In this document: in pieces, positions 1 through 64,000 of the stretch
How positions within the stretch are numbered: the first letter of the stretch is position 1
How the letters are laid out: each line of letters begins with the position of its first letter
Origin: Candidatus Nomurabacteria bacterium
Lineage (GTDB): Bacteria; Patescibacteriota; Saccharimonadia; Saccharimonadales; HK-STAS-PATE-42
Direction: 5' to 3'
NCBI GenBank assembly: GCA_023898665.1
Contig: CP060233.1
Span: forward strand, 612,368 to 676,367
Length of the DNA: 64,000 nucleotides
Made by a program: the position numbers and the translations under genes
The notes under the pieces: generated by a model
The model's input: the letters and a program-made list of their open reading frames with translations, nothing else
What the model was told of the DNA's origin: nothing
Databases searched by the model: none

Positions 1-893
1 GAGCGCCAAAGTCTTTTAAAAAATCCAAAAAACAAAAAATTGAAAAAATTGAAAAAAGTACTAAGCTTATTGCTGATAGCCTGAAGTTTATTGGTGAGCA
101 TTGGAAGACTCTGACCATAATCTTACTCAGCTATATTGGGGTTTATTTTTTGTTAGCATATGCAACTCCAAATATAAATTTGCCAGATTTGTTTAAACAG
201 GCTAATGACTCAGGAGCTAGCCCAGGCATAGCAGATAAGTTTAAAACTTTATCTGGGGCTTTATTTACTTACAGGAGTGATGCAACTGATTTTGCTCGCT
301 GGGCGCAATTCTTCCTAGCAATAATTTTTAGCTTGATATTTATTTATACGATCAGAAATTTGCACAAGGGCTATAAGTTAAGAGCTCGTGATGCTCTATA
401 TAACGGAACAAGCAATTTAGTGCCTTTTGTATTAAATATGTGTTTTATAGCTATCCAGCTCATCCCATTTACTTTAGTCGGAGTAATTTATAATATCGGC
501 ATGTCTCGAGGACTGTTTATTGGAGCCCTAGAAAAATATACAGCGACAATAGTACTAATCTTTTTTGGACTACTTACTTTCTGGTTTATACCTACGGCAA
601 TAATTTCTCTTTATGCCGTAACAGTACCTGGAGTCTACCCAACAAAAGCCATGCAAGCAGTAAGAATTATGGTCTCTAGAAGAAGATTAGAGGTGGTACG
701 ACATCTCACTGTATTTATATTATTTATCTTCCTTAGCTACTTAATTCTTTTACTTCTTCTTGTTACTTACTTACCAAGATTTGCCAACTTAAGCTTAGAC
801 CTCTTCTTTTTAATCGCTCTACCGCTTATACATGTGATGATGTACAAGCTTTACTTAAAACTTCTTGAAGGAGCCCAAGAGCAAAACATTTAG
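1..893 (+). CDS. polytopic membrane protein of unknown function (5' end outside window)
   Basis: The track ORF starts at TTG 150. The same frame is open from base 3 with no stop (APKSFKKSKKQKIEKIEK...), so the gene probably begins upstream of the window. It has several long hydrophobic segments and no family motif I recognise. Confidence 0.5.
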   Translation, partial: APKSFKKSKKQKIEKIEKSTKLIADSLKFIGEHWKTLTIILLSYIGVYFLLAYATPNINLPDLFKQANDSGASPGIADKFKTLSGALFTYRSDATDFARWAQFFLAIIFSLIFIYTIRNLHKGYKLRARDALYNGTSNLVPFVLNMCFIAIQLIPFTLVGVIYNIGMSRGLFIGALEKYTATIVLIFFGLLTFWFIPTAIISLYAVTVPGVYPTKAMQAVRIMVSRRRLEVVRHLTVFILFIFLSYLILLLLLVTYLPRFANLSLDLFFLIALPLIHVMMYKLYLKLLEGAQEQNI

Positions 894-953
894 ACGACTA
901 ACCAAATAAAAACTGTTAACTTTCTCTATAATATTGTATAATATATAGTTAAT

Positions 954-1751
954 ATGGGAGAGCTAATTAGAATTGGTGCCGAAGATTTTCGAAAAGGTTT
1001 AGGGGCATTAGTAGATCCGGCCGGGGCCCATGTTGCAGAACTAACTCTAAATGGAATGAATGTATTCTATCCAAAACAAGTTGTTGATGTGGATGGTGCA
1101 CAAAAAACAAGAGGAGGTATGCATCTATGCTCTCCATACTTTGGTCTCCCCGACTCAATGAAAGCACTAGGACAACCCCAGCACGGTTATGCAAGAGATG
1201 TTGAGTGGGAGGTCAATGCAGAAAGTAGTAGCTCGGTTAGTTTATCGCATGTGCAGACTGAAGGACCATTTAGTGGCTTAGTGCAACAGATTGAGTATAA
1301 GATTCTACAAGCTGGCGACAAAAGGTTCGATGCGACCCTTTGCGCCATGTTAAGTTTAAGAAACACAAGAAGTCGAGCAGGAGACATTCCTAAATCTGAT
1401 AGAGATATAATTGTAGCTCCAGGATTTCACCCATATTTTGATGAGCTATTTGATCAAACGCTTCATATGAATACACCTAGAAGATCAGATACAGCTAGAA
1501 GAATGGGAATATCTGCTATACAGACAATAAGAACTCAAAGTGATTTAGAAGTTGTTATTTTAACTAGTGGATTGCCAAATCTAATTGAGTGGACTGATGG
1601 CGCTGGGAGATATTCTTGTGTAGAACCTACTTGTGCAGGGGAGTCATTAGACACTTTTGAAGGTGCTTATATTATAAAACCGGGCTTTCAAAAAGATTTT
1701 GCAGTTGAGATTGCAGTTAGGAGAGATGATACCAATCTTTTCATGCTTTAA
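954..1751 (+). CDS. aldose 1-epimerase family protein (hexose-6-phosphate mutarotase-like)
   Basis: 265 aa. GGMHLCSPYFG and QPQHGYARDVEWEV resemble the YeaD / glucose-6-P 1-epimerase family pattern. The call is from motif memory only. Confidence 0.5.
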   Translation: MGELIRIGAEDFRKGLGALVDPAGAHVAELTLNGMNVFYPKQVVDVDGAQKTRGGMHLCSPYFGLPDSMKALGQPQHGYARDVEWEVNAESSSSVSLSHVQTEGPFSGLVQQIEYKILQAGDKRFDATLCAMLSLRNTRSRAGDIPKSDRDIIVAPGFHPYFDELFDQTLHMNTPRRSDTARRMGISAIQTIRTQSDLEVVILTSGLPNLIEWTDGAGRYSCVEPTCAGESLDTFEGAYIIKPGFQKDFAVEIAVRRDDTNLFML

Positions 1752-1781
1752 TATACACTTTGCTAAACTTAATTAGTATAG

Positions 1782-3782
1782 ATGAATAAAAGATCTGCTG
1801 AAAAAAGAATTCATAAGCTTAGGGAGTTAGTTAATGATTATCGCTATCGTTACCACGTGCTTGATGAGAGCACTATGAGTGAGGCTGCTGCAGATAGCTT
1901 AAAACACGAATTAGCTGAGTTAGAAAAAGAGTTTCCAGATCTAGTAACTCCAGATTCACCTACGCAGAGTATTCCGGGTGAGATTGCTAAAGGTTTTAAA
2001 AAAGTTCAACATGCAACTCGAATGCTAAGCTTAAATGATGTTTTCAGCAAAGAAGAAATTGAGGCTTGGGAAGCGCGAGTTCAGAAATTTACTCCTAATG
2101 AAAGGTTAGAGTTTTTTGCCGACATTAAATTAGATGGCTTGGCGTGTTCTCTAGTTTACGAGGATGGACTACTTGTTAGAGGAGCAACTCGTGGTGATAG
2201 TTTTATTGGTGAAGATGTGACTAATAATATTAAAACTTTAGAAAGTATTCCGCTTAGGCTTAATGACTATAAAGATTTTAGCAAAGGAAGAACTGAAGTT
2301 CGTGGAGAGATTGTTATCTTTAAAGATGAATTCGAGAAATTAAATACTAAGCTTAAAGAAGAAGGTTCTAAAACTTACGCTAATCCGAGAAACTTAGCTG
2401 CTGGAACCATCAGACAGCTCGACCCTAAACTTGTGGCCGCACGACCTCTTACTTTTTTTGCTTACGATTTAATCCATGATGGCTTCATAGCAACTCACCA
2501 AGAAGTTTATGAGAGTTTTAAGAAATTAGGTTTTAAGACTTCTGGAGCCTGGCAAACCTTTGAAGATATCGATTCTTTAGAAAAACACATAAGCAGTTGG
2601 TCAGAAAAAAGACAGGTTCTTAAGTTTAATACAGACGGTTTTGTTATTAAGATTAATGATAGAAAAGTATATTCTCAACTTGGAGTTGTTGGTAAAGCTC
2701 CGCGTGGAGCCGTGGCATTTAAGTATCCAGCCGAGCAAAGCACAACTAAAGTTCGAGATATTTTTGTAAGTATCGGTAGAACGGGCTCTGCTACTCCTGT
2801 AGCAATTTTAGAACCAGTAAACTTAGCGGGCACTACAGTCTCTATGGCTACACTTCATAATGATAGTGAGATTAAGCGTAAAGATATTAGAGTTGGTGAT
2901 ACTGTAATTGTAGAAAAAGCAGGAGATATAATTCCGGCCGTAATTGAGAGTTTAAAAGATTTAAGATCCGGTGATGAGAAAGAGTTTAGCTTCCCTAAGA
3001 ACTGCCCAGAGTGTAATACTATTTTAACTAAACTAAAAGAAGATGAGGCTGTTTGGCGCTGTCCTAATAATTCATGCCCAGCAAGAGTGAGTAAGAGAAT
3101 TCAACATTTTGCCTCGCGAGGAGCTTTAGATATTGAAGGTATGGGAGAAAAGAATGTAGAGGCTTTGCTTGATGCTAAGTTAATTAAAGATTCTGCTGAT
3201 CTTTATTCCCTGAGATATGAGGATGTTCTAAATTTAGAAAGGTTTGCGGAAGTTTCTAGCAGAAATCTAATTGATGCGATTAGCGAGAAAAAGAATCCAC
3301 CTTTAGCTAAATTTATTTATGCTTTAGGTATAAGACAGGTTGGATCTCAGACTGCAATTGATCTTGCTGAGAAGTTTAAAAAATTAGAAAGATTAAGCTT
3401 AGCTAATCTGGAAGAATTATTAGAAGTTGAAGGAATTGGAGAGGTTGTAGCAGAAAGTATTTTGGCCTGGTTTGGGGATCCTGAGAACAAAGAACTGCTA
3501 GAAAAGTTTAAAAAGAATAAAGTTGAACCTCAAGAAGTTGAAGAAGTTAGGGGTGGCAAGCTTGAAGGCTTAAGCTTTGTGATAACTGGAAGTATCAGTG
3601 GAATGAGCCGAGAAGAAGCTGCCGATAAGATTAGGGCTCTTGGTGGAACTTTCCAAAGCTCAGTTGGAAAAGGCACAACTTATTTAGTAGCAGGAGGAAG
3701 TGTTGGCGAATCAAAACTCAAAAAAGCCGAACAATTCGGAACTAAAGTAATCGACGAAGAAGAATTTAAACGACTGATATAA
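1782..3782 (+). CDS. ligA: NAD-dependent DNA ligase
   Basis: 666 aa. Adenylation lysine motif ADIKLDGLA, Cys4 zinc finger CPECNT...WRCPNNSCPA, an HhH region, and a C-terminal BRCT-like LSFVITGSISGMSREEA. Confidence 0.95.
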   Translation: MNKRSAEKRIHKLRELVNDYRYRYHVLDESTMSEAAADSLKHELAELEKEFPDLVTPDSPTQSIPGEIAKGFKKVQHATRMLSLNDVFSKEEIEAWEARVQKFTPNERLEFFADIKLDGLACSLVYEDGLLVRGATRGDSFIGEDVTNNIKTLESIPLRLNDYKDFSKGRTEVRGEIVIFKDEFEKLNTKLKEEGSKTYANPRNLAAGTIRQLDPKLVAARPLTFFAYDLIHDGFIATHQEVYESFKKLGFKTSGAWQTFEDIDSLEKHISSWSEKRQVLKFNTDGFVIKINDRKVYSQLGVVGKAPRGAVAFKYPAEQSTTKVRDIFVSIGRTGSATPVAILEPVNLAGTTVSMATLHNDSEIKRKDIRVGDTVIVEKAGDIIPAVIESLKDLRSGDEKEFSFPKNCPECNTILTKLKEDEAVWRCPNNSCPARVSKRIQHFASRGALDIEGMGEKNVEALLDAKLIKDSADLYSLRYEDVLNLERFAEVSSRNLIDAISEKKNPPLAKFIYALGIRQVGSQTAIDLAEKFKKLERLSLANLEELLEVEGIGEVVAESILAWFGDPENKELLEKFKKNKVEPQEVEEVRGGKLEGLSFVITGSISGMSREEAADKIRALGGTFQSSVGKGTTYLVAGGSVGESKLKKAEQFGTKVIDEEEFKRLI

Positions 3783-3793
3783 TTTATAACATA

Positions 3794-4204
3794 ATGAATA
3801 ACCTAGAATTGATTAAAGAGGCAAAAGAAGTCCTTAATCCTTTAAGGATTGGTGATGACTGCGTTGGTGATGTTGGCGCTGCGATACTAACTAGCGATGG
3901 TAATGTATTCAAAGGAGTTTCCGTAGACTTCGGATCCGGTCTAGGATGCTGCGCAGAAAGAATTGCTATTGGTAATATGTTTACAAACAAGTCGTACAAA
4001 ATAAAAAAGGTAGTTGCAGTTTGGAATAATAACCCAAAGAAGGAGTTATTTGTTTTACCACCTTGTGGTGCATGCAGACACTATATGTACAATATCGTAG
4101 AAGATGGAGGAGATATTGAAGTAGTTCTTTCTGCCTCAAAGTCAGTTAAACTTAAAGATCTTTTACCTCTTGGTGGATGGGACGTAGAGAAAGTTAATAT
4201 ATAG
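3794..4204 (+). CDS. cdd: cytidine deaminase family zinc enzyme
   Basis: 136 aa. Zinc-deaminase motifs CCAERIAIGNM and PPCGACRHYM (C/HAE ... PCxxC). The size fits the small tetrameric cytidine / blasticidin-S deaminase type. Confidence 0.7.
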   Translation: MNNLELIKEAKEVLNPLRIGDDCVGDVGAAILTSDGNVFKGVSVDFGSGLGCCAERIAIGNMFTNKSYKIKKVVAVWNNNPKKELFVLPPCGACRHYMYNIVEDGGDIEVVLSASKSVKLKDLLPLGGWDVEKVNI

Positions 4205-4210
4205 AAAACT

Positions 4211-4630
4211 TTGGAAGAAGATAAAAAGGTGATGTGCAAGGTCGCAATTATTTGCGGGACGAAAGTCCTGGTATTAAAGCGCTCTTGGAAGGTCATCTAT
4301 CATCCACATAGATGGGATATCCCTGGTGGAGCAAAAGACTTTGGCGAGAGTTTAGAGGATGCAGCTTCACGAGAATGTCTAGAAGAAGCTGGCTACGAAG
4401 TCGACCCTACTAAGCTTAAATTGATTGATACTCAGTCCAAGGTGCGTGATGGAAAGCCTGCGGAAAGATATTGCTTTGCTTTTTATGCTGAACAGGAATT
4501 TGAACCTAGGTTAAGCTTTGAGCACTCAGAATATAGGTGGCTAGAGATAGGCGAACTAGATGAAGTAAACTTACCAAACTTTTATAAAGATTGTATACGA
4601 GCTTGCTTAGCCGATGTCGAACTTCTCTAG
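4211..4630 (+). CDS. NUDIX hydrolase
   Basis: 139 aa. Nudix box GGAKDFGESLEDAASRECLEEAGYEV. Confidence 0.8.
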   Translation: MEEDKKVMCKVAIICGTKVLVLKRSWKVIYHPHRWDIPGGAKDFGESLEDAASRECLEEAGYEVDPTKLKLIDTQSKVRDGKPAERYCFAFYAEQEFEPRLSFEHSEYRWLEIGELDEVNLPNFYKDCIRACLADVELL

Positions 4631-6367
4631 CTTCTTTTTGGCTTCTTTTGTGCCAGAGTTTTGGAGCTCTAAAAGCTCTGAGTAAACCCCACCAGTTTTG
4701 GCGAGTTCTTTTGGTGAGCCAACTTCATCTATCTGACCATTCTTTAAAGTTACAATAAGATCCGCACCAGAGATTGTTGATAGCCTGTGCGCAATAATAA
4801 TTGTAGTCTTGTTATGCATAAGATTATCAAGAGCAATTTGTACTTCTTTCTCGGCTTTAGAATCTAGTGAGCTTGTTGCTTCATCTAGGATCAGAATTGG
4901 TGCATCTTTTAAAATGGTTCTAGCAATTGCTACGCGCTGTTTTTGACCTCCACTAAGCTTAACTCCACGCTCACCGATATAAGAGTTGTAACCATCTTTG
5001 AATTTAGAGATAAACCCGTCTGCATTGGCAGCTTTTGCTGCTTCCATAACCTGCTTTTTGCTAGCTTTAGGTTTTCCGTAAGCTATGTTTTCTGTAATTG
5101 TTCCGGAAAAAAGTGCGGGTTCTTGTAAGACTAAACCGATTTGTTTACGGAGCGATACTGTCTCTAGATTATTTAGGTCGTGACCATCTAGGAGAATTGT
5201 TCCTGATGATGGATGATAAAGCTTTAGAAGTAGGTGTGCTAACGTTGATTTACCTTGGCCTGATTCTCCAACAAGAGCTACTTTTTGTCCTGGTTTGACC
5301 TCAAAGTTTATGTTTTTAAAAACTGACTCACCTTTTTTGTATGAAAACTCGACATTATTAAACTTAATCTCACCATTTATTTTATCTATGATTTCTGTGG
5401 CAGATCTATCTTCTTCAACCTGGTCTAAAGTTATGAAGTAGTCTCTGGAGCTAGCAGTTGCAGCCTGAAGCTGACTTACTAAATATGAGATCATGAAGAT
5501 TGGAACTCTTACTAAAAGCGAGAATTGAATTAGTGCAACTGTATCACCAATTGTGATTGCTCCAGAATAAAGTTGCTGAACAATAGCTATAAAGACAAGG
5601 CCGAATATTATGTTTACTACAACTTTTCTCTCGACATCTTTCCTATTCCAGAAAATACTTTGCTTTTTATGTATTGGAGTAAGCTTCTCCAAAGTTGAGT
5701 TAAAATACTTATGCTCGCTATCCTCTGATGCAAAACTTTTGATAGTCTTTATGTTACTTATTGCCTCTTGAAAACGTCCAGCAGCGATATCTTTTAATTC
5801 GTTCTTTTGGTTCTCATAATTTTGCCAAGTACCGGAACTTCTAACTGTCATTAGAATATAAACAGGATAAATTGCAAGAAGAACTAGTCCCACAACCCAA
5901 CTAATACTAAATATAAAGAATAGGGAGAATACAGTAGTTGCTATGAATCCTAATAAGTTATTAGAAAAAGCCTGCATAAATGCGGCCAAACCTGTTGTTG
6001 AGCGATTAAGCTTAGAGACAATGGTTCCGGTTAATTCTTGGTCGAAGTAATTCTGAGGTAGTTTTAAAATCTTTTCATAGAACTTATCTGAAAGAAAGTT
6101 TGATATTTTTAAGCTTAACTGGTCACCAAAATATCCATTTACGTTATTAAGAAGTGTTTGAGCAATGTCTGCTATAAATATGGCAAGAACTAATAATAGC
6201 GCTGAGTTCCTGACAAGACTTCCCGAACTAAAGCCGTCTATTAATTCTCTTGTTATCAGCGGCATTACTTGCCCGAGCATGGCTACTGTTAAGCTTAAAA
6301 GCCCAATTGCAAGATAGTATCGCCATAAATGACCAGAGAATTTTAAAATTTTAAAAATACTACGCAT
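4607..6367 (-). CDS. ABC exporter, fused permease/ATPase (MsbA/MdlB-like)
   Basis: 586 aa. N-terminal six-TM exporter domain, then an NBD with Walker A GESGQGKST, signature LSGGQKQRVAIAR and Walker B ILILDEATSSLD. Confidence 0.9.
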   Translation of the reverse strand: MRSIFKILKFSGHLWRYYLAIGLLSLTVAMLGQVMPLITRELIDGFSSGSLVRNSALLLVLAIFIADIAQTLLNNVNGYFGDQLSLKISNFLSDKFYEKILKLPQNYFDQELTGTIVSKLNRSTTGLAAFMQAFSNNLLGFIATTVFSLFFIFSISWVVGLVLLAIYPVYILMTVRSSGTWQNYENQKNELKDIAAGRFQEAISNIKTIKSFASEDSEHKYFNSTLEKLTPIHKKQSIFWNRKDVERKVVVNIIFGLVFIAIVQQLYSGAITIGDTVALIQFSLLVRVPIFMISYLVSQLQAATASSRDYFITLDQVEEDRSATEIIDKINGEIKFNNVEFSYKKGESVFKNINFEVKPGQKVALVGESGQGKSTLAHLLLKLYHPSSGTILLDGHDLNNLETVSLRKQIGLVLQEPALFSGTITENIAYGKPKASKKQVMEAAKAANADGFISKFKDGYNSYIGERGVKLSGGQKQRVAIARTILKDAPILILDEATSSLDSKAEKEVQIALDNLMHNKTTIIIAHRLSTISGADLIVTLKNGQIDEVGSPKELAKTGGVYSELLELQNSGTKEAKKKLEKFDIG

Positions 6368-6382
6368 CTTATTTATTATAAC

Positions 6383-7159
6383 TTAAGCGAGTATTCTGAA
6401 TAACTTTTGCCATTGTTCTAAACTTAATTCTTCTGCTCTGGTCTCTAGGTTTAAGTTTAATTGGGTCAATCTTGTAGAGACCTCTTGTTTCGATATTCTA
6501 AGACCTGCACAGAGATTATTGACTAGAGTCTTTCTGGGTGACGAAAAGCTAAACTTAACAAGTTGAGAATATCTTTTAAAGTCTATGTTAAACAATGTTT
6601 CTTCTCTTGGTTCTAGAATAATAACTTGAGATTTAACTTTAGGCGGAGGAGAAAATGATTCTATACCTACAATAATCCCAAGTTCTGTTTTATAGAAGTA
6701 GTTTATAAGCATAGCAAGTTTATTTGAGTTACCGTTTTCTGGAGACTGCGCCATTTTTTCTGCGACCTCTTTCTGGACTAAAACTACAGCCAGTGACGGC
6801 TTGTTCTTCATCTCAATTAAGTTTCTAAAAAATATACCTGAGATGTAGTAAGGTAGATTTGCTACTAGTTTGTAATTCTTTTGGAGCTCCTCAAAGTTAA
6901 AAGTTCGTATGTCAGAATTTACAACTTCTAGATTAGTTTTGCCTGGGAAGCTTTTTGGTAAGTCTGATGCTAGCTTTTCGTCAAATTCTATTGCTAAAAC
7001 TTTAGCATCAGATTTTAAAAGTTTAGATGTGAGAGTACCTAAACCTGGTCCGACCTCAACGACAAAATCACTTTTATTAAGCTTAGCGTAGTCAGCAATT
7101 GCTTGCAGAATTAATGGATCTTGCAACCAGTGCTGACCAAGCTTTTTATTAGCAGGCAT
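6383..7159 (-). CDS. rsmA: 16S rRNA (adenine1518/1519-N6)-dimethyltransferase
   Basis: 258 aa. KLGQHWL N-terminus, SAM-binding VVEVGPGLGTLT, and NLPYYIS, all typical of KsgA/RsmA. Confidence 0.9.
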   Translation of the reverse strand: MPANKKLGQHWLQDPLILQAIADYAKLNKSDFVVEVGPGLGTLTSKLLKSDAKVLAIEFDEKLASDLPKSFPGKTNLEVVNSDIRTFNFEELQKNYKLVANLPYYISGIFFRNLIEMKNKPSLAVVLVQKEVAEKMAQSPENGNSNKLAMLINYFYKTELGIIVGIESFSPPPKVKSQVIILEPREETLFNIDFKRYSQLVKFSFSSPRKTLVNNLCAGLRISKQEVSTRLTQLNLNLETRAEELSLEQWQKLFRILA

Positions 7160-7161
7160 TT

Positions 7162-8013: not shown

Positions 8014-8085
8014 ATGACCCTATTATATCATCTACCTCAGTAAAAGGCACATATAGATATATGGTTTTATCTTACTATTAGAATA

Positions 8086-55481: not shown

Positions 55482-55490
55482 AACTAAATC

Positions 55491-55655: not shown

Positions 55656-55700
55656 GCCTTCCGAGGTGTTTTTTTACCGCCTTAGTGGTATTATCAACTT

Positions 55701-56435: not shown

Positions 56436-56497
56436 GCAAGCATCTTAATAGATAATATTCTGGATAATTGTATATTTGCTTTTTGAATTTGGCACTA

Positions 56498-56554
56498 TAA
56501 AACTACCACCTTGAATAACCCATACAACAAGTTTAAGTATATTTTGTAGAGTTA
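56498..56554. repeat. repeat R2, copy b
   Basis: Homologous to 53527-53583. The minus strand reads ITLQNILKLVVWVIQGGSFIVPNSKSKYTIIQNIIY* with its stop at 56445-56447 and no start codon upstream. Confidence 0.75.
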
Positions 56555-56643
56555 TAGATATTGTATCGAATACTGTTAAACGACTTCTATTACTTTTCTG
56601 TTAGTATTAACTCTAGTTAGGTTATTAAGCTAGAAAGGTTTTT

Positions 56644-57024
56644 ATGTCTAAGTATGTTGATGGTTTCGTATTAGTTGTCCCTAAAGATAAAAGAAAAGAG
56701 TATAAGAAGATGGCAGAGGAAGGTCGAGAATCTTGGATGAAGCATGGGGCTCTCCACTATTTTGAGTGTATTGGCGATGATTTGGGACAGCAAGAGATGG
56801 GTACAGAAAAATCACGCTCTTTTAAAGAAATGGCAGGAGCTGGAGACGATGATGACGTATGGTTTTCTTTTATCGTTTTTGAATCAAAGGCACAAAGAGA
56901 TGAGATAAATAAAAAAGTATTGGCCGAGATGGATGAAGCCTACAAAGTTAAGAGTGATTTTGTAAGCCCTTTTGAGATGAGTAAAATGGCCTATGGTGGA
57001 TTTGAGAGTGCAGTTGAAGGGTAG
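56644..57024 (+). CDS. DUF1428 family protein
   Basis: 126 aa. MSKYVDGFVLVVPKDKRKEYKKMAEEGRESWMKHGALHYFECIGDDL matches the DUF1428 N-terminal pattern as I remember it. Confidence 0.7.
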   Translation: MSKYVDGFVLVVPKDKRKEYKKMAEEGRESWMKHGALHYFECIGDDLGQQEMGTEKSRSFKEMAGAGDDDDVWFSFIVFESKAQRDEINKKVLAEMDEAYKVKSDFVSPFEMSKMAYGGFESAVEG

Positions 57025-57171
57025 GCGTTATAAATAACAATCTAAGTGTATGATAAGTTCATAAGAATACATGTTAAAGGAGATGATTTATGAAAAGCGA
57101 AAAAATATCCTGTTAAGTTTAATATTGACTATCCAGTTCAATTAGATAGATTTACAACCTTCTTTAGAATA

Positions 57172-57726
57172 TTGTGGAGTGTACCAATTTTAATCCTTTT
57201 ATCTATTTTAACTTCTTCAGGCAGAGAAGTCTTTGTAAATGAGGCAGGTAAGCAAATGACCACTAGTGGGGGTAGTATTGCTGGGGGGTTATCGGCCGCA
57301 ACCGCTCTTATGATAGTCTTTCGACAGAAATACCCTAAGTGGTGGTATAACTTTGCACTGGAGCTAAATAGGTTTATGGCAAGAGTTGGCGCTTATTTGC
57401 TTTTACTTACAGATAAGTATCCCTCTACAGATGAAAACCAGTCAGTATATTTAGATGTAGACTATCCTAATGTTGAAAAAGAATTAAATCGCTGGTTACC
57501 CTTAGTTAAGTGGTTATTGGCTATTCCGCATTACGTAGTTTTAATATTTTTATTAATCGGTGTATTCTTCTCAACCTTAATTGCCTGGTTTGTAATACTA
57601 TTTACCGGTAGATACCCTAGGGGTTTATTTGATTATGTAGTGGGGGTAGGACGGTGGATAATGCGCGTAAATGCCTATGCCTTTTTATTAACAACTGACG
57701 AGTATCCTCCATTCAGTTTGAAATAA
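57172..57726 (+). CDS. DUF4389 family membrane protein (5' part displaced by a frameshift)
   Basis: 184 aa from TTG. LAIPHYVVLIFL ... FTGRYPRGLFDYVVGVGRW ... YAFLLTTDEYPPFSL is typical of DUF4389. Conserved N-terminal sequence (YPVKFNIDYPVQLDRFTTFFRILW) continues upstream in the same frame without a start. An SD-preceded ATG at 57090 lies in the +1-shifted frame. Confidence 0.65.
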   Translation: MWSVPILILLSILTSSGREVFVNEAGKQMTTSGGSIAGGLSAATALMIVFRQKYPKWWYNFALELNRFMARVGAYLLLLTDKYPSTDENQSVYLDVDYPNVEKELNRWLPLVKWLLAIPHYVVLIFLLIGVFFSTLIAWFVILFTGRYPRGLFDYVVGVGRWIMRVNAYAFLLTTDEYPPFSLK

Positions 57727-57754
57727 CTAAAATAAAAAGGATTATACTTTAATT

Positions 57755-57937
57755 ATGGCAAAAGCAAGTAGTGGCTCTAGTGGAGCAGTTTACGGACTAG
57801 GTGTAATCGGTGCTCTTGTTTATTTTATGCAAGCAGCAACAAGTTTTGGTGATGTAATTTCGGGCATATTTAAGGCACTAGTTTGGCCGGCCTATGTTGT
57901 GTTTAAGTTCTTAGAGCTATTTTATGGGAAAGTTTAA
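57755..57937 (+). CDS. hypothetical small membrane protein
   Basis: 60 aa with two hydrophobic helices (VYGLGVIGALVYFMQ and ALVWPAYVVFKFL). Confidence 0.4.
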   Translation: MAKASSGSSGAVYGLGVIGALVYFMQAATSFGDVISGIFKALVWPAYVVFKFLELFYGKV

Positions 57938-57949
57938 AGCATAGCATTT

Positions 57950-58366
57950 ATGAATTCTCACGAATTGAACAAGATAGTTAATACTCCTGAACTTGACGTT
58001 GTAAGAGTTGTTTCTTTAAGGAATAACTCAAGTGAGGTTTTGTTAGTGCAAGAAGTTGATGATATCAACTGGAAGCTCCCAGGTGGAAAAATACATGAGG
58101 CTGAGACAATATTTGAAGCTTTTGAAAGAGAGATTGAAGAGGAGCTTGGATTTAAACCCACTCGAGAAATGATTGTTAACTACGTATCTGCTAATATTCC
58201 AGACAGTGAAAATATCAGACATATTTTTTTAATTAACGAAGTTGATGAGAGTTCAATAATACAGACAGAAGAGGTGGCAGAAGCTAGATATTTTAATCTT
58301 GAGGAGCTGCCTGAAACTAAGTTCTCTGGTCATATTTCATCTGCAGTCAAACTAATCATTAAATAA
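57950..58366 (+). CDS. NUDIX hydrolase
   Basis: 138 aa. Nudix box GGKIHEAETIFEAFEREIEEELGF. Confidence 0.8.
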   Translation: MNSHELNKIVNTPELDVVRVVSLRNNSSEVLLVQEVDDINWKLPGGKIHEAETIFEAFEREIEEELGFKPTREMIVNYVSANIPDSENIRHIFLINEVDESSIIQTEEVAEARYFNLEELPETKFSGHISSAVKLIIK

Positions 58367-58412
58367 TAAGCTATCATTTTTGTTATAATCAGCTAAAAAT
58401 AGCCCCTTATTT

Positions 58413-58487
58413 GCCGCCTTAGCTCAGTGGTAGAGCGCATCCATGGTAAGGATGAGGTCACGAGTTCAATCCTCGTAGGCGGCTCCA
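58413..58487 (+). tRNA. tRNA-Thr (anticodon GGU), CCA encoded
   Basis: Hand fold: acceptor GCCGCCT/AGGCGGC, D arm GCTC-AGTGGTA-GAGC, anticodon arm CATCC-ATGGTAA-GGATG, T arm ACGAG-TTCAATC-CTCGT. Confidence 0.9.
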
Positions 58488-58568
58488 ATTTGAATTTTTA
58501 TAGAAGTAGTAGAAAATGGGCTTCTGATCTGTTATAATAGAGTATTAAAGCTTAAAAAATTATTAAAG

Positions 58569-58781
58569 ATGGCAAAGAAGAGTAAAGGTAAGAAGTCTAG
58601 TAAAAGAAAGATTGTTGGTTTAGTCTGTGAAGAAAGCGGACACCGACATTACTACACTACTAAAGGACCGAATGTAACTGAAAAACTTAGGCTACGTAAA
58701 TATAACCCCGTTCTTAGAAAAATGACCTGGTACTTAGAGACCAAAAAGAACTTAGGTCGTAACGAAGCTCCTAAGCGATAA
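58569..58781 (+). CDS. rpmG: 50S ribosomal protein L33
   Basis: 70 aa. IVGLVCEESGHRHYYTTKGPNVTEKLRLRKYNPVLRKMTWYLETK follows the L33 pattern. The usual Cys pairs are absent, so this is a zinc-free type. Confidence 0.85.
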   Translation: MAKKSKGKKSSKRKIVGLVCEESGHRHYYTTKGPNVTEKLRLRKYNPVLRKMTWYLETKKNLGRNEAPKR

Positions 58782-58790
58782 TAAGTAAAG

Positions 58791-58812
58791 ACTCTCTAGC
58801 TAGAGAGTTTTT
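58791..58812. terminator. bidirectional hairpin terminator between rpmG and the PilB-like gene
   Basis: ACTCTC-TAGCTA-GAGAGT followed by TTTTT, overlapping the stop codon of the convergent gene. Confidence 0.5.
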
Positions 58813-60124
58813 ACTTACAAATATCGATTACGTCAGATAGATCAACTTCTTTTCTGAGTGCTTTTATTAGCCCATCTTCTCTTTTGCTCATCATTCCGGA
58901 CTGTAGAGCAAGACGATTTAATGTCTCAGCTGAGAGATTAGTGTTTCTGGCAAAAGTTCTTTTGAGGTAATCGTTTAGTTTAAGTACTTCAACTAAATTC
59001 GTCACTCCGCCATATTCTGATACTACTGGGAGTTCTAGATGTAATAACTCTTCTGGACTTTTGATACCAGCATGTGAGTATATTATCTTCCAAGACTCTG
59101 GTAATTCTAAGCCAAAAAAGTTTTCTAATTGAGAGATTATACTATTGTCTAGCTGATGATTCCCATTTGAGCTGGCAATTGTCTGGATTGGTGAAATAGA
59201 TGCTACCGTTTTTAACTCAAGTAAAAATTCATTTTTTACATCTTCAGGAATTAAGTTTATTACTCTTTTTAGAGATCCAGCGACTGATCCCTCTGACATA
59301 GCTATAACTACTAATTTTCCAGATACAGAAAGCTCATGTGCAATTTCTAGAGTATCTTTTGTGAGTACATCGACTAAGCAAACTACCCGAGGGTTAGAAG
59401 TTATTACTTGCTCTATAAACTTTTTAGTTAAAGAACTAACTTTTGTAAATATTCTATCGTGATTTTTAACCTCGGGTAGATTCATATAACTAGAATCAAA
59501 ACTTACTGATGCGATATTGTTTTGTTGTTTTAAATAGTTTAGACATGAGTTTATTAAAACTCTAAGATTATACGAATCTTTTGAGTCTATTAAAATAATT
59601 CCTTTTCTATAATCTAGTACTTCTTCAAGATCTTCTAATGATTTACCCCAAAAACCGCTATCCTCTAGGGTTTTATGAGATGAGTTAGAGCTTAAGTTGA
59701 TAATTAAATGGGAATTACCGTCTTCAATGTTTTGAATGTAAGTTAAATTTAATTTTTGACTATCAATACTTAAACTAGCAGTTTGGACTGGGTTTAAGTC
59801 TGATTTTTCTAGATTAGATGAGGTTTTAATAAAATCTAGTAATTCTTCTAGAATATTATTATTAAAGTTTTTGCCTGTTGGTTGTAGCTTACTGGATATC
59901 TCAAAAAAGCAGCCGTATGATTTATTGTTTGAATAGATATGAATAGAAGAGGCATCAGCTTTTTGGGATGTACTAATTAAGTTTAATATTAGAGCTTCAA
60001 TAGGATCAGAAGATACTACTCTTTTAGATCCTAAAGAAGTTTCAGACTGATTTGTATTATTTTTTTTGCCCACCAAAATAGATTTTTTCTCCACGTTATT
60101 ACTATATAGTTTAATACTTGTCAC
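58811..60124 (-). CDS. degenerate PilB/GspE-family protein lacking all NTPase motifs
   Basis: 437 aa. ADASSIHIYSNNKSYGCFFEI aligns with SASDIHFENARDFVRVRFRI of the PilB at 62807. Walker A GPTGSGKTTTL is replaced by DSKDSYNLRVL, VIMVGEIRD by VVCLVDVLTKD, and TGHLVLSTFHA by SGKLVVIAMSE. Confidence 0.6.
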   Translation of the reverse strand: MTSIKLYSNNVEKKSILVGKKNNTNQSETSLGSKRVVSSDPIEALILNLISTSQKADASSIHIYSNNKSYGCFFEISSKLQPTGKNFNNNILEELLDFIKTSSNLEKSDLNPVQTASLSIDSQKLNLTYIQNIEDGNSHLIINLSSNSSHKTLEDSGFWGKSLEDLEEVLDYRKGIILIDSKDSYNLRVLINSCLNYLKQQNNIASVSFDSSYMNLPEVKNHDRIFTKVSSLTKKFIEQVITSNPRVVCLVDVLTKDTLEIAHELSVSGKLVVIAMSEGSVAGSLKRVINLIPEDVKNEFLLELKTVASISPIQTIASSNGNHQLDNSIISQLENFFGLELPESWKIIYSHAGIKSPEELLHLELPVVSEYGGVTNLVEVLKLNDYLKRTFARNTNLSAETLNRLALQSGMMSKREDGLIKALRKEVDLSDVIDICK

Positions 60125-60248
60125 CCATGGGTTGCAACAGGGTAGAGATTATTGGTATAATCAAGAAACAAAGTTTTTTAAAAGTCCTGAGCTTGCTAAA
60201 GGATAATAAAAAAATAAATATCTTATATAAAAAAGAAGAGTTAAGAAG

Positions 60249-60674
60249 ATGAACCAAAAAGTATTAGAAGTTGCCAATAAATTTAAAAAACATGCTGTTG
60301 TGGATGTTAGAACTGGTGACGTTGTTAGGGTCAGCCAAAGGATTAAAGAAGGCTCAAAAGAGCGTGTCCAGGTTTTTGAAGGTCTAGTTATTCGAGTTAG
60401 AAACAAGAATGGAATTGCAAACTCAATTCTAGTAAGAAAACTCGCTAGTGGAGTCTGGGTCGAAAAAGGCTTTATGCTAAATGCTCCTAGTGTAGAAAAA
60501 GTAGAGGTTGTTAGACGTCAAAAAGTTAGAAGAAACTACCTAACTTATATGCGTGAGCGCGCTGGTAAGAATACTCGTCTCAAGAGCGCCACTAAGTTCG
60601 ATCACACCGCTGTAAATACTCTGCCAGAGAAGCCAGTAGAAAAAGTTGAGGAGCCAAAAGAGGAAGTGAACTAA
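60249..60674 (+). CDS. rplS: 50S ribosomal protein L19
   Basis: 141 aa. DVRTGDVVRVSQRIKEGSKERVQVFEGLVIRVRNKNG is typical of L19, here with a C-terminal extension. Confidence 0.9.
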   Translation: MNQKVLEVANKFKKHAVVDVRTGDVVRVSQRIKEGSKERVQVFEGLVIRVRNKNGIANSILVRKLASGVWVEKGFMLNAPSVEKVEVVRRQKVRRNYLTYMRERAGKNTRLKSATKFDHTAVNTLPEKPVEKVEEPKEEVN

Positions 60675-60678
60675 AATA

Positions 60679-61206
60679 ATGAATTTCCACGATATTTTAG
60701 AAACTGGAGATTATCAAAATGGTATCGTTAATACTGTTATCGAGATTCCTAAAGGTAGTGTTTTAAAGCTTGAGTACGAAGCTGAGAGAGGGTGCTTCTT
60801 TGTGGATAGAGTTGAGCCGAGTATTTTTCCTAAACCAGCCAACTATGGTTTTATCCCAAAGACCCTTGATGAGGACGGAGATGCCCTTGATACTTTAGTT
60901 GTCACAGTAGAACCTGTCCCAACTGGTGCTGTTATGGAAGTTAAGATTCTAGGAGTACTTAACTTCGAAGACGATGGAGAGATGGACTACAAGATTATTT
61001 GTGTAGCAAGTGATGATAGAACTGAGAATAAGAGGTTAGAATCTCTTGATGATCTTGGTGAACAATGGAAGAAGGAGGTTGAATTCCATTTTAACCACTA
61101 TAAAGACCTAAAGAAACCAGGTACAACAAAAGTTTTAGGTTACGGAGATGCTGAAGAAGCAAAAAAAATAATTGCTGAGAGCATCGAACGCTGGAACAAT
61201 AAGTAA
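60679..61206 (+). CDS. ppa: inorganic pyrophosphatase (family I)
   Basis: 175 aa. VIEIPKGSVLKLEYE, NYGFIPKTLDEDGDALD and FNHYKDL. Confidence 0.9.
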   Translation: MNFHDILETGDYQNGIVNTVIEIPKGSVLKLEYEAERGCFFVDRVEPSIFPKPANYGFIPKTLDEDGDALDTLVVTVEPVPTGAVMEVKILGVLNFEDDGEMDYKIICVASDDRTENKRLESLDDLGEQWKKEVEFHFNHYKDLKKPGTTKVLGYGDAEEAKKIIAESIERWNNK

Positions 61207-61251
61207 CTCTACTTGCATAATATAATACTAATATGATATAATAATAGTATT

Positions 61252-61653
61252 ATGAGTAACCAAGAATTCTATCCATACATAAAGGCACCTGGTGTAGTAC
61301 AAGATATAGGAGATAATGAACACGCTATTATAAGTAGACCTGTCCCAAAAAAAGGGGAATTCGCTACTAGTTGGGATTATGAAGAAGCTGTGTCACAGTA
61401 CCATAGAGAAAGATTAGAGCACGCAGCAACTAAATGTTTAGCACTAAGTATAAGAAACAATGGAGTTAACTCACTTACCCCTAATAGTTGTATTGCAGAA
61501 GGTTGTGGCCATTCAGTAAGTATGTCACAGCTTAAGTTTCAGCCAAATATGGAAATAGGATGCCCTCTCGGCCTCACAGCATCAGAACAACCAGTAGATA
61601 TTAAAGATAAAAATACTAACTTAAAGCTATCTGATCATAGACCATACCTCTAG
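61252..61653 (+). CDS. hypothetical protein
   Basis: 133 aa ORF with no recognisable motif. Confidence 0.4.
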   Translation: MSNQEFYPYIKAPGVVQDIGDNEHAIISRPVPKKGEFATSWDYEEAVSQYHRERLEHAATKCLALSIRNNGVNSLTPNSCIAEGCGHSVSMSQLKFQPNMEIGCPLGLTASEQPVDIKDKNTNLKLSDHRPYL

Positions 61654-61740
61654 TACCTTTATTAATCTCTCGCTTGATAACTTATCAGCTTAAGCGTTAT
61701 ACTTAAGGGTGTATAAGATTTATCTGATTGGTGGGAATAG

Positions 61741-62751
61741 ATGAAGACTCGAATTGCTATTAACGGATTTGGCCGAATTGGTAGAACGGCTTTTAAAATT
61801 GCTCATCGAAGGAGCGATATTGAGATAGTTGCTATTAATGATCTTGGAGATCCTAATGCTCTAGCTCATTTGCTAAAGCACGACTCGACTTATCATAACT
61901 ATAGTTGGTACAAAACTATTGAAGCTGGCGAAAAAGAGATTATTGTAGATGGTTTAAAGATTCCGGTTTATAGCGAAAAAGACCCTAATAATTTACCTTG
62001 GAAGAAGCTTGAAGTTGATATCGTTATAGAAAGCACTGGCTTTTTTACAGAGCCCAAAAAAGCAAAATCTCATTTAAAAGCTGGGGCCAAAAAAGTTATT
62101 ATTTCTGCTCCCTGCAAAGGTGAGGGAGCTAAGACTGTCATACTAGGAGTTAACGATGGTGATCTTAGAAAAGATGATGTGGTTATCTCAAATGGCAGCT
62201 GCACTACTAACTGCGTCGCTCCCGTCTTAAAGATTTTAGAAGATGCTTTTGGAGTTAAGAAGTCAATGATGACTACTGTTCATAGTTATACCAACTCGCA
62301 GAGTCTACAAGATGGTGCTAAAAAAGATTTAAGAGAATCAAGAGCTGCTAGTGAAAATATTGTTCCGACTTCTACTGGAGCATCAAAAGCAGTCGGGGCC
62401 GCAATGCCAGAGACTAATGGATTATTTAATGGCTTAAGCATCAGAGTTCCGAATCCAGTAGTAAGTTTAATTGACTTAACTTTAATTACTAAAAAGAAAG
62501 TTACTAAAGAAGAAGTTAACGAGACACTTATAAAAGCGGCTAGTCAAGCTAGATGGCAAGGAATTGTTACAACTACAGATGAGGAGCTAGTTTCTAGTGA
62601 TTTTATTGGGAATAGCCATTCAGCCATTGTCGACCTACCCCTTACTGACGTAGTTGATGGAGACCTGGTTAAAGTTGTTGCTTGGTACGACAACGAGTGG
62701 GGCTACAGTAATAGATTAGTTGAGATATGTGTTGATGCTAATAATCTTTAG
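61741..62751 (+). CDS. gap: glyceraldehyde-3-phosphate dehydrogenase
   Basis: 336 aa. INGFGRIGR, active site SNGSCTTNCVAP and WYDNEWGYS. Confidence 0.95.
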   Translation: MKTRIAINGFGRIGRTAFKIAHRRSDIEIVAINDLGDPNALAHLLKHDSTYHNYSWYKTIEAGEKEIIVDGLKIPVYSEKDPNNLPWKKLEVDIVIESTGFFTEPKKAKSHLKAGAKKVIISAPCKGEGAKTVILGVNDGDLRKDDVVISNGSCTTNCVAPVLKILEDAFGVKKSMMTTVHSYTNSQSLQDGAKKDLRESRAASENIVPTSTGASKAVGAAMPETNGLFNGLSIRVPNPVVSLIDLTLITKKKVTKEEVNETLIKAASQARWQGIVTTTDEELVSSDFIGNSHSAIVDLPLTDVVDGDLVKVVAWYDNEWGYSNRLVEICVDANNL

Positions 62752-62783
62752 ACTAACAATATCTAGCTAAGTATAATAATCAT

Positions 62784-62821
62784 AATAGAGTAATTTAATA
62801 CAACAATTAAATTACTCTATT
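62784..62821. terminator. perfect 16-bp inverted repeat between gap and pilB
   Basis: AATAGAGTAATTTAAT - ACAACA - ATTAAATTACTCTATT. The 3' arm is the last codons plus stop of pilB (NRVI*). Confidence 0.5.
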
Positions 62822-64000
62822 AATCTCTTCAATAGTTGTCTCGCCGGCAAGGCATTTTAAGAGTCCAGCTTGATACATGGTTATCATCCCTTGCCTCTTC
62901 GCGGCATCTTCAAGCTGCTGGGATGTTGGTAATACTTCTTCGTTTAACAAAGCTCTTATTTCGTCACCGATAGTTAGCTCCTCTATGATCGAGGTCCTGC
63001 CTTTATAGCCAAAAGGATTTTCTTCTGATTTACCTGGTTTATACAATTGAAAGTTATTAAGATCTTGAGCTGGCTTAATGTCTGCTGGCAAATCTTTTAA
63101 ATGCTCTTGGAAGTGTTTTATTATATTAGGCTCTGGCTGATAAGGAGTGCGAGTAGCGGGATCCAAACTTCTTACTAAGCGCTGAGAAATTATTAGCTTT
63201 ACTGCAGAAGCAAATATAGGGTTTCTTCCCACAAGACCTAGCATTCTGCTCATAGCAGCTGAAGCTGAGGAAGCGTGGAAAGTTGATAATACTAGATGCC
63301 CAGTGATGGATGCTTGTAGGGCAGTATGGGCAGTGTCCTCGTCACGGATCTCACCGACCATAATGACATCAGGGTCAAGGCGTAAGACTGCCCTAAGCTT
63401 ACTGGCAAAGCTATCACCACTTCTTGTGTCTACCGGGATTTGACTCATCCCATCTAGGCCGTATTCGACAGGGTCTTCCAGGGTCATTAATTTCTTCTCT
63501 GGAGTATTAAGCCTCATCAACACAGAGTACAGCGTGGTTGTCTTACCAGACCCAGTTGGGCCTACTACTAGGACCATTCCGTGAGGGTGAGATATAACGT
63601 TATCAATTGGTGCACGCTCCCTTGAGTCGAGACCAAGCTTATCCAGGTCGAGTAAGTCGACATCAAAGTTAAAAAGACGCAGGACTGCATCCTGGCCATA
63701 AACAGTAGGAACCGTTTCTATACGCATGTTTAGAATGTCTTCTTGACCTTCTGGAGAAGTGACTCTCTCTGAAAGGTGACTAGTTTGAGCATCGTTTGAG
63801 CTTGAAGAGATGCCTGCCCTAACTGCAATACTCTGTTGCACATGATAGTACTTTTGGTGGGTTAATACTGCGATAACATGCAGCATGCCATCAATACGGA
63901 ATCGTACTCTTACAAAATCTCGAGCATTTTCGAAGTGGATATCAGACGCTGAGAGCTTATAGGCTTGGTTAATTATGTAGCTTAGAAGATCATCACTATT
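62807..64000 (-). CDS. pilB: type IV pilus assembly / type II secretion ATPase PilB/GspE (N-terminus outside window)
   Basis: The frame stays open past the track start to the window edge (..AYKLSASDIHFENARDFVRVRFRIDGMLHV..). Walker A GPTGSGKTTTL, VIMVGEIRD, His box TGHLVLSTFHA. Confidence 0.9.
   Translation of the reverse strand, partial: NSDDLLSYIINQAYKLSASDIHFENARDFVRVRFRIDGMLHVIAVLTHQKYYHVQQSIAVRAGISSSSNDAQTSHLSERVTSPEGQEDILNMRIETVPTVYGQDAVLRLFNFDVDLLDLDKLGLDSRERAPIDNVISHPHGMVLVVGPTGSGKTTTLYSVLMRLNTPEKKLMTLEDPVEYGLDGMSQIPVDTRSGDSFASKLRAVLRLDPDVIMVGEIRDEDTAHTALQASITGHLVLSTFHASSASAAMSRMLGLVGRNPIFASAVKLIISQRLVRSLDPATRTPYQPEPNIIKHFQEHLKDLPADIKPAQDLNNFQLYKPGKSEENPFGYKGRTSIIEELTIGDEIRALLNEEVLPTSQQLEDAAKRQGMITMYQAGLLKCLAGETTIEEINRVI

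Follow-up and report, generated by a model that had tools for sequence, protein, structure and literature searches.

A hyper-abundant, quasi-palindromic word in a Saccharibacteria clade, possibly a self-recognition sequence for DNA uptake

The palindromic octamer TAAGCTTA occurs 38 times, more often than any other 8-mer, in a stretch of 64,000 nucleotides from Candidatus Nomurabacteria bacterium, a member of the Saccharimonadales in GTDB (contig CP060233.1, positions 612,368 to 676,367 of the forward strand; this whole stretch is called the window, and coordinates refer to it unless a relative is named). The over-representation is confirmed by comparison with compositional and codon-aware chance models, is common to several relatives, and extends to a non-palindromic variant, TAAGTTTA (complement TAAACTTA); the palindrome is referred to below as the C-word and the variant as the T-word. 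The C-word, or the longer unit YTAAGYTTAR, may act as a self-recognition signal that directs DNA uptake or enhances transformation, in the manner of the DNA uptake sequence (DUS) of Neisseriaceae and the uptake signal sequence (USS) of Pasteurellaceae, a reading that is favoured here tentatively and with somewhat less than even confidence.

An exact recount gave the same 38 C-words as the initial annotation had counted by eye, and 36 of the 38 start positions given there are correct, the remaining two being 13044 (for 13054) and 47157 (for 47156). The base counts of the window predict ~2.1 copies, close to the earlier estimate of about two, dinucleotide-preserving shuffles give 3.65 ± 1.98 (maximum 9), and Markov models of orders 1–3 give ~4–4.5 per strand. 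The maximal-order (order-6) Markov model gives 29.9, but this figure is circular, and hence uninformative, because most copies of the 7-mers TAAGCTT (54) and AAGCTTA (47) lie within the octamer. When synonymous codons were shuffled within each gene (n = 1000), with every protein and the codon usage of each gene preserved, 3.94 ± 1.95 coding C-words were obtained (maximum 11) against 33 observed (z = 14.9). This shuffle had been set beforehand as a test by which the word could be refuted, and the excess stands after it; together with the dinucleotide shuffles, it bears out the earlier view that a single codon-pair preference is insufficient.

Both stop-free reading phases are used, as had been noted, with 19 sites in annotated coding sequences read as xxT-AAG-CTT-Axx (Lys-Leu) and 14 as xTA-AGC-TTA (Leu-Ser-Leu). 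Every coding C-word sits on one of a few peptide contexts, and these peptides are themselves in excess in the window (Leu-Ser-Leu, 31 vs. 16 expected; Lys-Leu, 188 vs. 144 expected). The density is equal in coding DNA (34 copies in 57.6 kb) and in non-coding DNA (4 copies in 6.4 kb). The inner hexamer AAGCTT occurs 85 times, and 38 of these copies (45%) carry the T...A flanks, in agreement with the earlier count of about 85, nearly half of them so flanked. Outside the octamer, AAGCTT is found 47 times in total, against 51 under an order-2 Markov model, and 43 times in coding sequences, against 33.6 ± 5.6 under the synonymous shuffle. Because these values are near expectation, the enriched unit is a longer word and not the HindIII site.

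The bases flanking the C-word are a pyrimidine at −1 and a purine at +1 in 66 of 76 cases in the window and in 272 of 300 cases in the pooled set, nothing being conserved farther out, and 29 of the 38 window sites accordingly read YTAAGCTTAR. Among single-base variants, only the T-word is strongly enriched, and the other one-off variants are near expectation: one-base deviants at the two central positions number 41 in the window against 9.6 expected, and those at outer positions are at ~1–1.8-fold. The double variant TAAATTTA is unenriched in the lineages that prefer the C-word and is only mildly enriched, 2–4-fold with counts of 2–5, at the loci of those that do not. Recognition is therefore asymmetric, requiring G at position 4 and a pyrimidine at position 5. 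The simplest form of the word is the asymmetric TAAGYTTA, which becomes a palindrome when position 5 is C, and the enriched unit is YTAAGYTTAR. The initial annotation had taken the palindrome as the unit; its enrichment holds, but the palindrome is one form of a unit whose T-word is favoured directly and is dominant in one sub-lineage.

For comparison, syntenic DNA was fetched from relatives, whose distance from the window is expressed here as LigA identity. Contigs of the same species from other samples contain the C-word at a comparable excess (L081, 17 kb; 18 vs. 1.4 expected), and strong enrichment is found in L087 (79%, 22 kb; 38 vs. 1.4), in L090 (77%, 22 kb; 40 vs. 1.5) and in L268, a second region of the 744-kb contig of L090 (22 kb; 34 vs. 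1.3). Lower counts are found in L091 (77%, 22 kb; 7 vs. 1.0), L092 (72%, 22 kb; 2 vs. 1.3) and L093 (68%, 16 kb; 5 vs. 0.9). The C-word density is thus 0.6 per kb in the window and 1.5–1.8 per kb in L087, L090 and L268, corresponding to 10–27-fold enrichment. Because the enrichment is common to relatives and recurs in a second genome region, it is neither specific to the window nor an artefact, and the check in relatives that had been proposed for the word is borne out in L087, L090 and L268. The two nearest sampled lineages, L085 and L089 (both 83%), contain no C-word in 22 kb each, against 1.4 and 1.3 expected, so that presence in close relatives holds for only part of the clade. A neighbour-joining tree of eight concatenated orthologues groups the lineages as ((window, L089), L085), (L091, (L087, L090)), L092 and L093.

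The enrichment is restricted to this clade and is patchy within it. Among the matches listed, 23 GTDB Saccharimonadales loci with 52–62% LigA identity have 0–2 C-words each and no other hyper-abundant word, and ~50 unrelated bacterial loci, again among the matches listed, have no dispersed 8-mer with at least 15 copies and more than ~7-fold enrichment. A search of metagenome contigs with the PGK-TIM fusion protein gave only matches of 32–41% identity. Viral contigs scanned for two or three closely spaced words yielded chance pairs and local tandem repeats, and no word-rich contig. In L085 and L089, orthologous sites often retain AAGCTT and have lost a flanking base, and both lineages, although they have no C-word, show 2–5-fold enrichment of the T-word; the complete absence of the C-word from them might reflect active avoidance rather than decay.

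The T-word is enriched 4–17-fold across lineages, with 41 copies in the window as given above, 29 in L087 (2.6 expected), 19 in L090 (3.0 expected) and 11 in L085 (2.1 expected). In L093 it is the dominant word (34 vs. 2.0 expected), and it is similarly abundant in L269, a second region of the L093 lineage (20 vs. 1.9 expected), and in L271–L273, a widespread sister population (22–27 vs. 2.2 expected). Synonymous choice at Lys-Leu sites reveals the preference at position 5: the ratio of AAG to AAA inside T-AAR-CTT-A is 21 : 7 in the window, 26 : 6 in L087 and 48 : 5 in L090 and L268 combined, whereas it is 5 : 12 in L093 and L269 combined, the background AAG fraction being 0.31–0.42. The word thus exists in lineage dialects, with C preferred at position 5 in the window, L087 and L090 and with C and T equivalent in the lineage of L093 and of the VirB4 protein P0138. 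By these counts there are two dialects, but their relation to the phylogeny is complicated by the near absence of the word from the sisters of the window, L089 and L085. Enrichment of the T-word extends to Lys-Phe and Leu-Asn-Leu sites, at which a C-word would cost an amino-acid change; the T-word is therefore favoured directly and is no mere decayed palindrome. Mutation pressure toward A+T is not behind the T preference, because the T-preferring lineage has the higher G+C content (0.41–0.42 vs. 0.375). The population represented by L271–L273 (ENA ERZ724546 NODE_1, 467 kb; JGI 3300056831 and 3300056623) is a very widely sampled Saccharibacteria population of the T dialect, and 126 collection blocks contain its VirB4 protein, P0138. 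Other long contigs on record are JGI 3300048586 Ga0498924_0000005 (744 kb, C dialect), a 667-kb JGI contig with P0010 and P0129, and the word-poor GCA_029781075.1.

The orientation of the T-word, which unlike the palindrome has a direction, is balanced on the + strand (TAAGTTTA : TAAACTTA, 23 : 18 in the window, 14 : 15 in L087 and 19 : 15 in L093), and it is also balanced between sense and antisense relative to transcription. The GC skew of the window is mostly positive and its cumulative skew rises near-monotonically; the T-word is nonetheless oriented 23 : 18. Since the asymmetric form is balanced in this way, an mRNA signal and an oriented signal of the Chi or FtsK-orienting polar sequence (KOPS) type are excluded, and because coding and non-coding densities are equal, both phases are used and there is no strand skew, the force that maintains the word acts on double-stranded DNA rather than at the protein or RNA level. 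In alignments of the codons of twelve orthologous genes, word-rich lineages pick, at Lys-Leu and Leu-Ser-Leu positions, the synonymous codons that spell the word, whereas L085 and L089 encode the same peptides otherwise. Synonymous sites are saturated between the window and L090 (third-position identity ~0.40), and 6 of 13 window C-words are nevertheless identical in L090, compared with 7.6% of control 8-mers, so that sites have been retained or have arisen again in place; the sister lineage L089 matches none of 14. Over comparisons at saturation, 27–46% of sites are common between genomes, compared with 6–8% of control 8-mers, and many sites are specific to one lineage, which indicates turnover. 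Contigs of the same species (L081–L084), which are 99.9% identical to the window, show no polymorphism at any word.

The length of the unit, its density, its equal orientation, the enriched one-off variant, the dialects, the effect on peptides, the restriction to a clade, and the presence of ComEC and pilus genes all fit a sequence used in DNA uptake, and for these reasons an uptake word is favoured. The window encodes ComEC, the DNA-import channel (13937..15382, − strand; Pfam Competence, 9.4e-46), a type IV pilin-like protein with an N-terminal methylation motif (8730..9215, − strand; Pfam N_methyl, 3e-05), and two ATPases of the T2SSE family, one PilB-like (58811..60124, − strand; Pfam T2SSE, 1.3e-08) and one PilT/PilB-like (62807..63886, − strand; Pfam T2SSE, 1.9e-81). 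Natural competence is known in Saccharibacteria, ComEC-dependent transformation having been demonstrated in cultured members of lineages other than that of the window (PMC10633639). In this model, fragments bearing the word would be bound preferentially by some part of the type IV pilus/ComEC competence machinery, and kin DNA would as a result be imported and recombined at a higher rate. Word-creating mutations, at synonymous positions, in spacers or, occasionally, through an amino-acid change, would then be fixed more often than word-destroying ones, and copies would accumulate wherever the protein permits (Lys-Leu, Leu-Ser-Leu, Lys-Phe and Leu-Asn-Leu). Sub-lineages could subsequently drift into dialects, and some, such as L089 and L085, could largely lose the word. 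From this fit we infer that a bias in uptake or recombination is the maintaining force; the idea of an uptake signal, raised in the initial annotation on the strength of the ComEC and type IV pilus genes, remains the best-fitting one and is favoured by inference.

Known uptake sequences resemble the word in several respects. One-off variants of DUS are also enriched, as the T-word is here. DUS is likewise a word of 10–12 bp with approximately one copy per kb in both orientations, in hosts with type IV pilus and ComEC genes, it is absent from recently inserted segments (in the window, from a segment where only ~1.3 copies would be expected), and related lineages have dialects that are one or two bases apart (PMC3630211). 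Unlike DUS, the word of the window is of unrelated sequence, belongs to the Candidate Phyla Radiation (CPR), has a palindrome as its commonest form, has been lost from sister lineages, and is known from sequence alone, whereas DUS has a ComP-type receptor and a demonstrated uptake bias. USS is also a hyper-abundant short word that is mostly intragenic, is confined to restricted reading frames and has at least two sub-types between lineages. It biases the encoded peptides, and in the window Leu-Ser-Leu has twice its expected count; USS has flanking AT-rich segments, whereas the word described here has no conservation beyond ±1. In Campylobacter jejuni, the short AT-rich palindrome RAATTY, modified by CtsM, marks DNA as self in transformation; that mark is a methylated 6-mer that, unlike the word of the window, is not known to be hyper-abundant.

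Several observations weigh against an uptake word. The nearest sampled lineages, L089 and L085, are without any C-word though they retain ComEC. Copies in the window are intragenic in 34 of 38 cases (~89%), and the four non-coding ones are found after a stop codon and ahead of the following gene (13917), just upstream of a start codon (19758) and in a divergent spacer (24144 and 24150), whereas transcription terminators contain approximately half of DUS and USS copies, frequently in inverted pairs (bioRxiv 10.1101/2025.10.24.684340). The spacing of C-words is no evener than chance (coefficient of variation, 0.9–1.3). The commonest form in three lineages is a perfect palindrome with a HindIII core, which is more typical of methyltransferase targets and of the cyanobacterial highly iterated palindrome HIP1. 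Repair and recombination genes are rich in words (3.0 vs. 1.2 per kb), but this is not specific, because other cytoplasmic housekeeping genes are alike and the lineages compared are not independent. Finally, at ~10% divergence, words are 74–87% conserved and controls 71–73%, a non-significant difference. Sharing at saturation combined with the lack of excess conservation at ~10% divergence can be explained by many individually weak sites at equilibrium, and suggests a genome-wide bias acting on weak sites, strong selection on each site being less likely.

The main alternative, rather unlikely but still substantial, is that the word is linked to methylation as HIP1 may be, an orphan or restriction-modification methyltransferase recognizing TAAGCTTA or a sequence near it. 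Variants of this explanation invoke biased mismatch repair (Elhai's model), strand discrimination in repair, chromosome organisation, or methylation-dependent enhancement of transformation, the last of which overlaps with the uptake reading. HIP1 (GCGATCGC) is an octameric palindrome that is 15–300-fold over-represented within and between genes and whose sites are shared beyond neutral expectation (PMC5861425), with lineage-specific replacements (PMC4390886). The C-word agrees with these hallmarks in its palindromic octameric form, its enrichment in coding and non-coding DNA alike (~10-fold in the window, 26–27-fold in relatives), its lineage-specific variants, its positional sharing at saturation and its occurrence in a phylum with naturally competent members. 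In addition, its centre is a HindIII- or AluI-type AAGCTT/AGCT, and C-to-T change at its only C yields exactly the abundant one-off word. However, the word is AT-rich where HIP1 is GC-rich, and one sub-lineage favours the non-palindromic T-word 10–17-fold with no preference for C, whereas the described HIP variants are all palindromes. One-base deviants are central, the opposite of the outer-base pattern reported by Elhai for HIP1, and the inner hexamer is unenriched on its own. A repair drive from T:G to C:G should deplete the T-word, which is enriched in every lineage, and no DNA methyltransferase domain was found among ~60 window open reading frames (ORFs) of at least 100 aa or among the genes called in the relatives' loci, which cover a fraction of each genome. 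The two ideas may nevertheless converge, because methylated HIP1 raises the transformation of Synechococcus (bioRxiv 10.1101/2024.09.10.611283) and HIP1 has now been proposed as an uptake sequence.

The remaining explanations are less probable. The word could be the site of an abundant DNA-binding protein (nucleoid-associated, chromosome-organising or globally regulatory) whose dimers occupy TAAG half-sites, the word being maintained by selection on chromosome structure; this is improbable. The ranking in the C dialect follows half-sites, with two perfect ones (TAAGCTTA) above one (TAAGTTTA) and none (TAAATTTA) unenriched, and a role in nucleoid structure has been proposed for HIP1 (PMC5861425); but in the T dialect the half-perfect word outnumbers the palindrome ~4:1, with strong enrichment and no C preference, and sister lineages have lost the word completely without obvious consequence. 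A functionless by-product of a context-specific mutation or repair bias is just as improbable. Fast turnover with many lineage-specific sites, the lack of excess conservation and the patchy distribution would be expected of it, whereas a bias over ten bases from many precursors, including amino-acid replacements, has no known mechanism other than recognition by a protein, would need a switch of preference at one position between lineages, and does not account for the other one-off variants being near expectation. Both of these explanations fit less well than an uptake word or a HIP1-like word; in particular, an exact 8–10-mer at ~1 site per kb inside genes is not known to be required by any nucleoid protein. 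Very improbable are a preference for codon pairs or peptides (Lys-Leu, Leu-Ser-Leu) and an oriented recombination or segregation signal of the Chi/KOPS type, to which the few peptide contexts and the word-rich repair and recombination genes might point. Codon-pair preference is ruled out by the synonymous shuffles, which give 3.9 coding sites rather than 33, and by the equal density of non-coding DNA, and L085 and L089 use other codons at orthologous Lys-Leu and Leu-Ser-Leu positions. Chi, KOPS and SpoIIIE recognition sequences (SRS) are also over-represented 5–8-mers read by DNA-processing machines, but they are strongly oriented with replication and skewed between strands, unlike the T-word. 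Mimicry of the −10 promoter element (TAnnnT) was likewise rejected, since TAAATTTA, which is nearer the −10 consensus, is unenriched in the genome of the window.

The word is thus of a known kind, that of the hyper-abundant words DUS, USS and HIP1, but differs from them in sequence, phylum, quasi-palindromic form and the mixture of DUS-like and HIP-like features. To our knowledge, only two families, both proteobacterial, are firmly established as taking up DNA in a sequence-specific manner, with HIP1 of cyanobacteria as a third case that is still debated. Literature searches returned no paper linking Saccharibacteria or Patescibacteria to uptake sequences or to this word, and searches for methylation motifs gave nothing relevant. 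The quasi-palindromic 10-mer TTAAG(C/T)TTAA, with its dialects, could be the first self-recognition sequence for uptake or transformation in the CPR, which is somewhat less likely than not. If so, some ultrasmall epibionts would control their genetic exchange with kin much in the way of Neisseria and Haemophilus, and the word might show that DUS/USS and the HIP1 of cyanobacteria are forms of a single phenomenon. Such a word in Patescibacteria concerns a group whose members were only recently shown to be transformable (PMC10633639). The uptake reading is directly testable with donor DNA carrying TTAAGCTTAA or TTAAGTTTAA, and the word might be of practical use in the genetics of CPR bacteria that are uncultured or hard to transform. 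It may also serve as a marker of native DNA in bins of this clade, although acquired and native DNA are not cleanly separated in the window. The clade is a natural experiment, with strong C-dialect, T-dialect and word-lost lineages, in which phylogenetic profiling may identify the responsible gene.

The uneven distribution of C-words described in the initial annotation was found as claimed, with none at 8.0–13.0, 50.1–51.2 and 52.1–58.4 kb and a single one at 36.1–44.5 kb; this unevenness mostly tracks the availability of Lys-Leu and Leu-Ser-Leu peptides. The 36.1–44.5 kb region is a conserved type IV secretion system (T4SS) cluster with VirB4 (36107..44510, − strand) that has few words in each of the lineages examined. 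Its synteny extends to all relatives, with VirB4 93–95% identical, the adjacent giant VanY-domain protein being only 49% identical between lineages where VirB4 is 93% identical. The cluster of L268 has 6 C-words in 9.65 kb, compared with 28 in 12.3 kb of flanking DNA, and it has 2.5 times fewer Lys-Leu contexts per kb, which is the main reason for its poverty; the realised fraction of contexts is only mildly lower (0.29 in the cluster and 0.44 in the flanks). The T4SS cluster is 2–5 GC points richer than its flanks in the window (36107–44510), in L268 (9101–18751) and in L269 (6166–15759). Recent horizontal transfer of the cluster was considered and rejected, its synonymous sites being saturated. 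The gap at 8–13 kb is occupied by core genes, among them those for RNase III and NusB, whose peptides seldom permit the word.

Only the 52.1–56.4 kb portion beside tRNA genes looks like a real insertion. It belongs to a word-free segment (52030..58412) bordered by the genes for tRNA-Phe and tRNA-Gly(gcc) on the left (51863–52029) and tRNA-Thr on the right (58413–58487). In L268, where 52.1–56.4 kb is missing, the same two tRNA genes are followed directly by hypothetical, DUF1428 and DUF4389 genes, and the ~4.3 kb that is extra in the window comprises a hypothetical gene, GNAT, a hypothetical gene, GrpB and a hypothetical gene. The 6.4-kb tRNA-bracketed segment contains no words, but it has only 11 Lys-Leu contexts, from which ~1.3 copies would be expected. 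The proposed separation of core from accessory DNA by word density is therefore at most compatible with the 52.1–56.4 kb insertion and fails for the VirB4 cluster and the 8–13 kb gap; it is not clean, because the word-poor VirB4 cluster is conserved core. Two pairs of direct repeats ~2.95 kb apart lie in this island, one of 20 nt (52677–52696 and 55627–55646, 100% identical) and one of 57 nt (53527–53583 and 56498–56554, 86% identical), and they suggest a segmental duplication, one copy of which is now without a long ORF.

The sites in the window are given without strand. Near the left end, C-words lie at 62..69, in a gene cut by the edge of the window, at 790..797, in the hypothetical gene 150–893 (Leu-Ser-Leu), and at four positions in LigA (1782–3782): 1814..1821 (Lys-Leu), 2026..2033 (Leu-Ser-Leu; found at the same alignment column in L087, L090 and L091), 2348..2355 (Lys-Leu) and 3394..3401 (Leu-Ser-Leu). 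A NUDIX gene has one at 4411..4418 (Lys-Leu), which is common to L087 and L090, and ABC transporter genes have them at 4954..4961 and 6007..6014 (Lys-Leu) and at 6110..6117 and 6290..6297 (Leu-Ser-Leu). Further Lys-Leu sites are found in KsgA (7078..7085) and twice in HtpX (7815..7822 and 7980..7987); at the first HtpX site relatives have Lys-Val, and a Val-to-Leu change therefore made the C-word.

Around ComEC, C-words are located at 13044..13051 in the hypothetical gene 13018–13914, at 13917..13924 in the non-coding gap that separates the ComEC stop codon from the neighbouring gene, and at 14582..14589 and 15323..15330 within ComEC (both Leu-Ser-Leu). Single copies then follow in an FAD-linked oxidase gene (17383..17390), 5 bases upstream of the start codon of a histidine-kinase gene (19758..19765), in that kind of gene (21611..21618) and in a PfkB kinase gene (22663..22670), and two overlapping C-words (TAAGCTTAAGCTTA) occupy 24144..24157 in a divergent intergenic region. 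Genes for dCTP deaminase (26650..26657), GatA (27567..27574) and SmpB (29623..29630), the hypothetical gene 29728–30657 (29862..29869), and a RecF-like (SMC_N/AAA_23) gene (34541..34548 and 35091..35098) also contain C-words, and the sole one in the VirB4/T4SS cluster is in the giant VanY-domain gene (39510..39517). The remaining copies are in RnpA (44895..44902), a rhodanese (UPF0176) gene (45593..45600), an SBP_bac_5 gene (47157..47164), the hypothetical gene 48448–49224 (48538..48545 and 49111..49118, the latter at Val-Ser-Leu), RuvA (51278..51285) and the PilT/PilB-type T2SSE ATPase gene (63394..63401).

The 41 T-words extend over 236..62469. On the + strand, the 23 copies of TAAGTTTA start at 236, 1351, 2621, 6452, 7287, 7516, 9132, 14465, 17031, 17398, 21518, 25296, 30423, 33643, 34187, 45265, 45539, 47462, 48802, 57114, 59252, 59978 and 62462, and the 18 copies of TAAACTTA start at 1764, 2818, 4147, 4566, 5359, 6419, 6550, 8686, 14020, 17965, 25430, 31998, 32447, 39954, 46591, 46848, 48201 and 51007.

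LigA of the window is 100% identical to a protein annotated from a metagenome-assembled genome of Candidatus Saccharimonadales. The gene content of the window fits Saccharibacteria, including WhiB, ComEC, the pilin, the T2SSE ATPases, a PGK-TIM fusion and GatCAB; the VirB4 cluster with its giant cell-wall hydrolases is likewise Saccharibacteria-like. The WhiB-family regulator (8086–8628) occurs in most sampled relatives (L085, L090, L092 and L093), and the PGK-TIM fusion gene (30711–32756) is conserved across the clade. Two tandem paralogues (50099–50680 and 50684–51232) are 25% identical and both have the motif VVxGSYxNxCV; L268 has a single copy, between RuvA and an ExoIII-like gene. Assignment of ORF 50684–51232 to the uracil-DNA glycosylase (UDG) superfamily as a T:G glycosylase was rejected, the Pfam match being sub-threshold and unsupported by PDB sequence searches; its motif is presumably isochorismatase-like. 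The SBP_bac_5 gene (46624–48426) is split by one in-frame TGA (47323–47325), whereas relatives have one gene of 597–620 aa with Asn or Ser at this codon, and the TGA may have arisen recently as a nonsense mutation, be a sequencing error or be read through.

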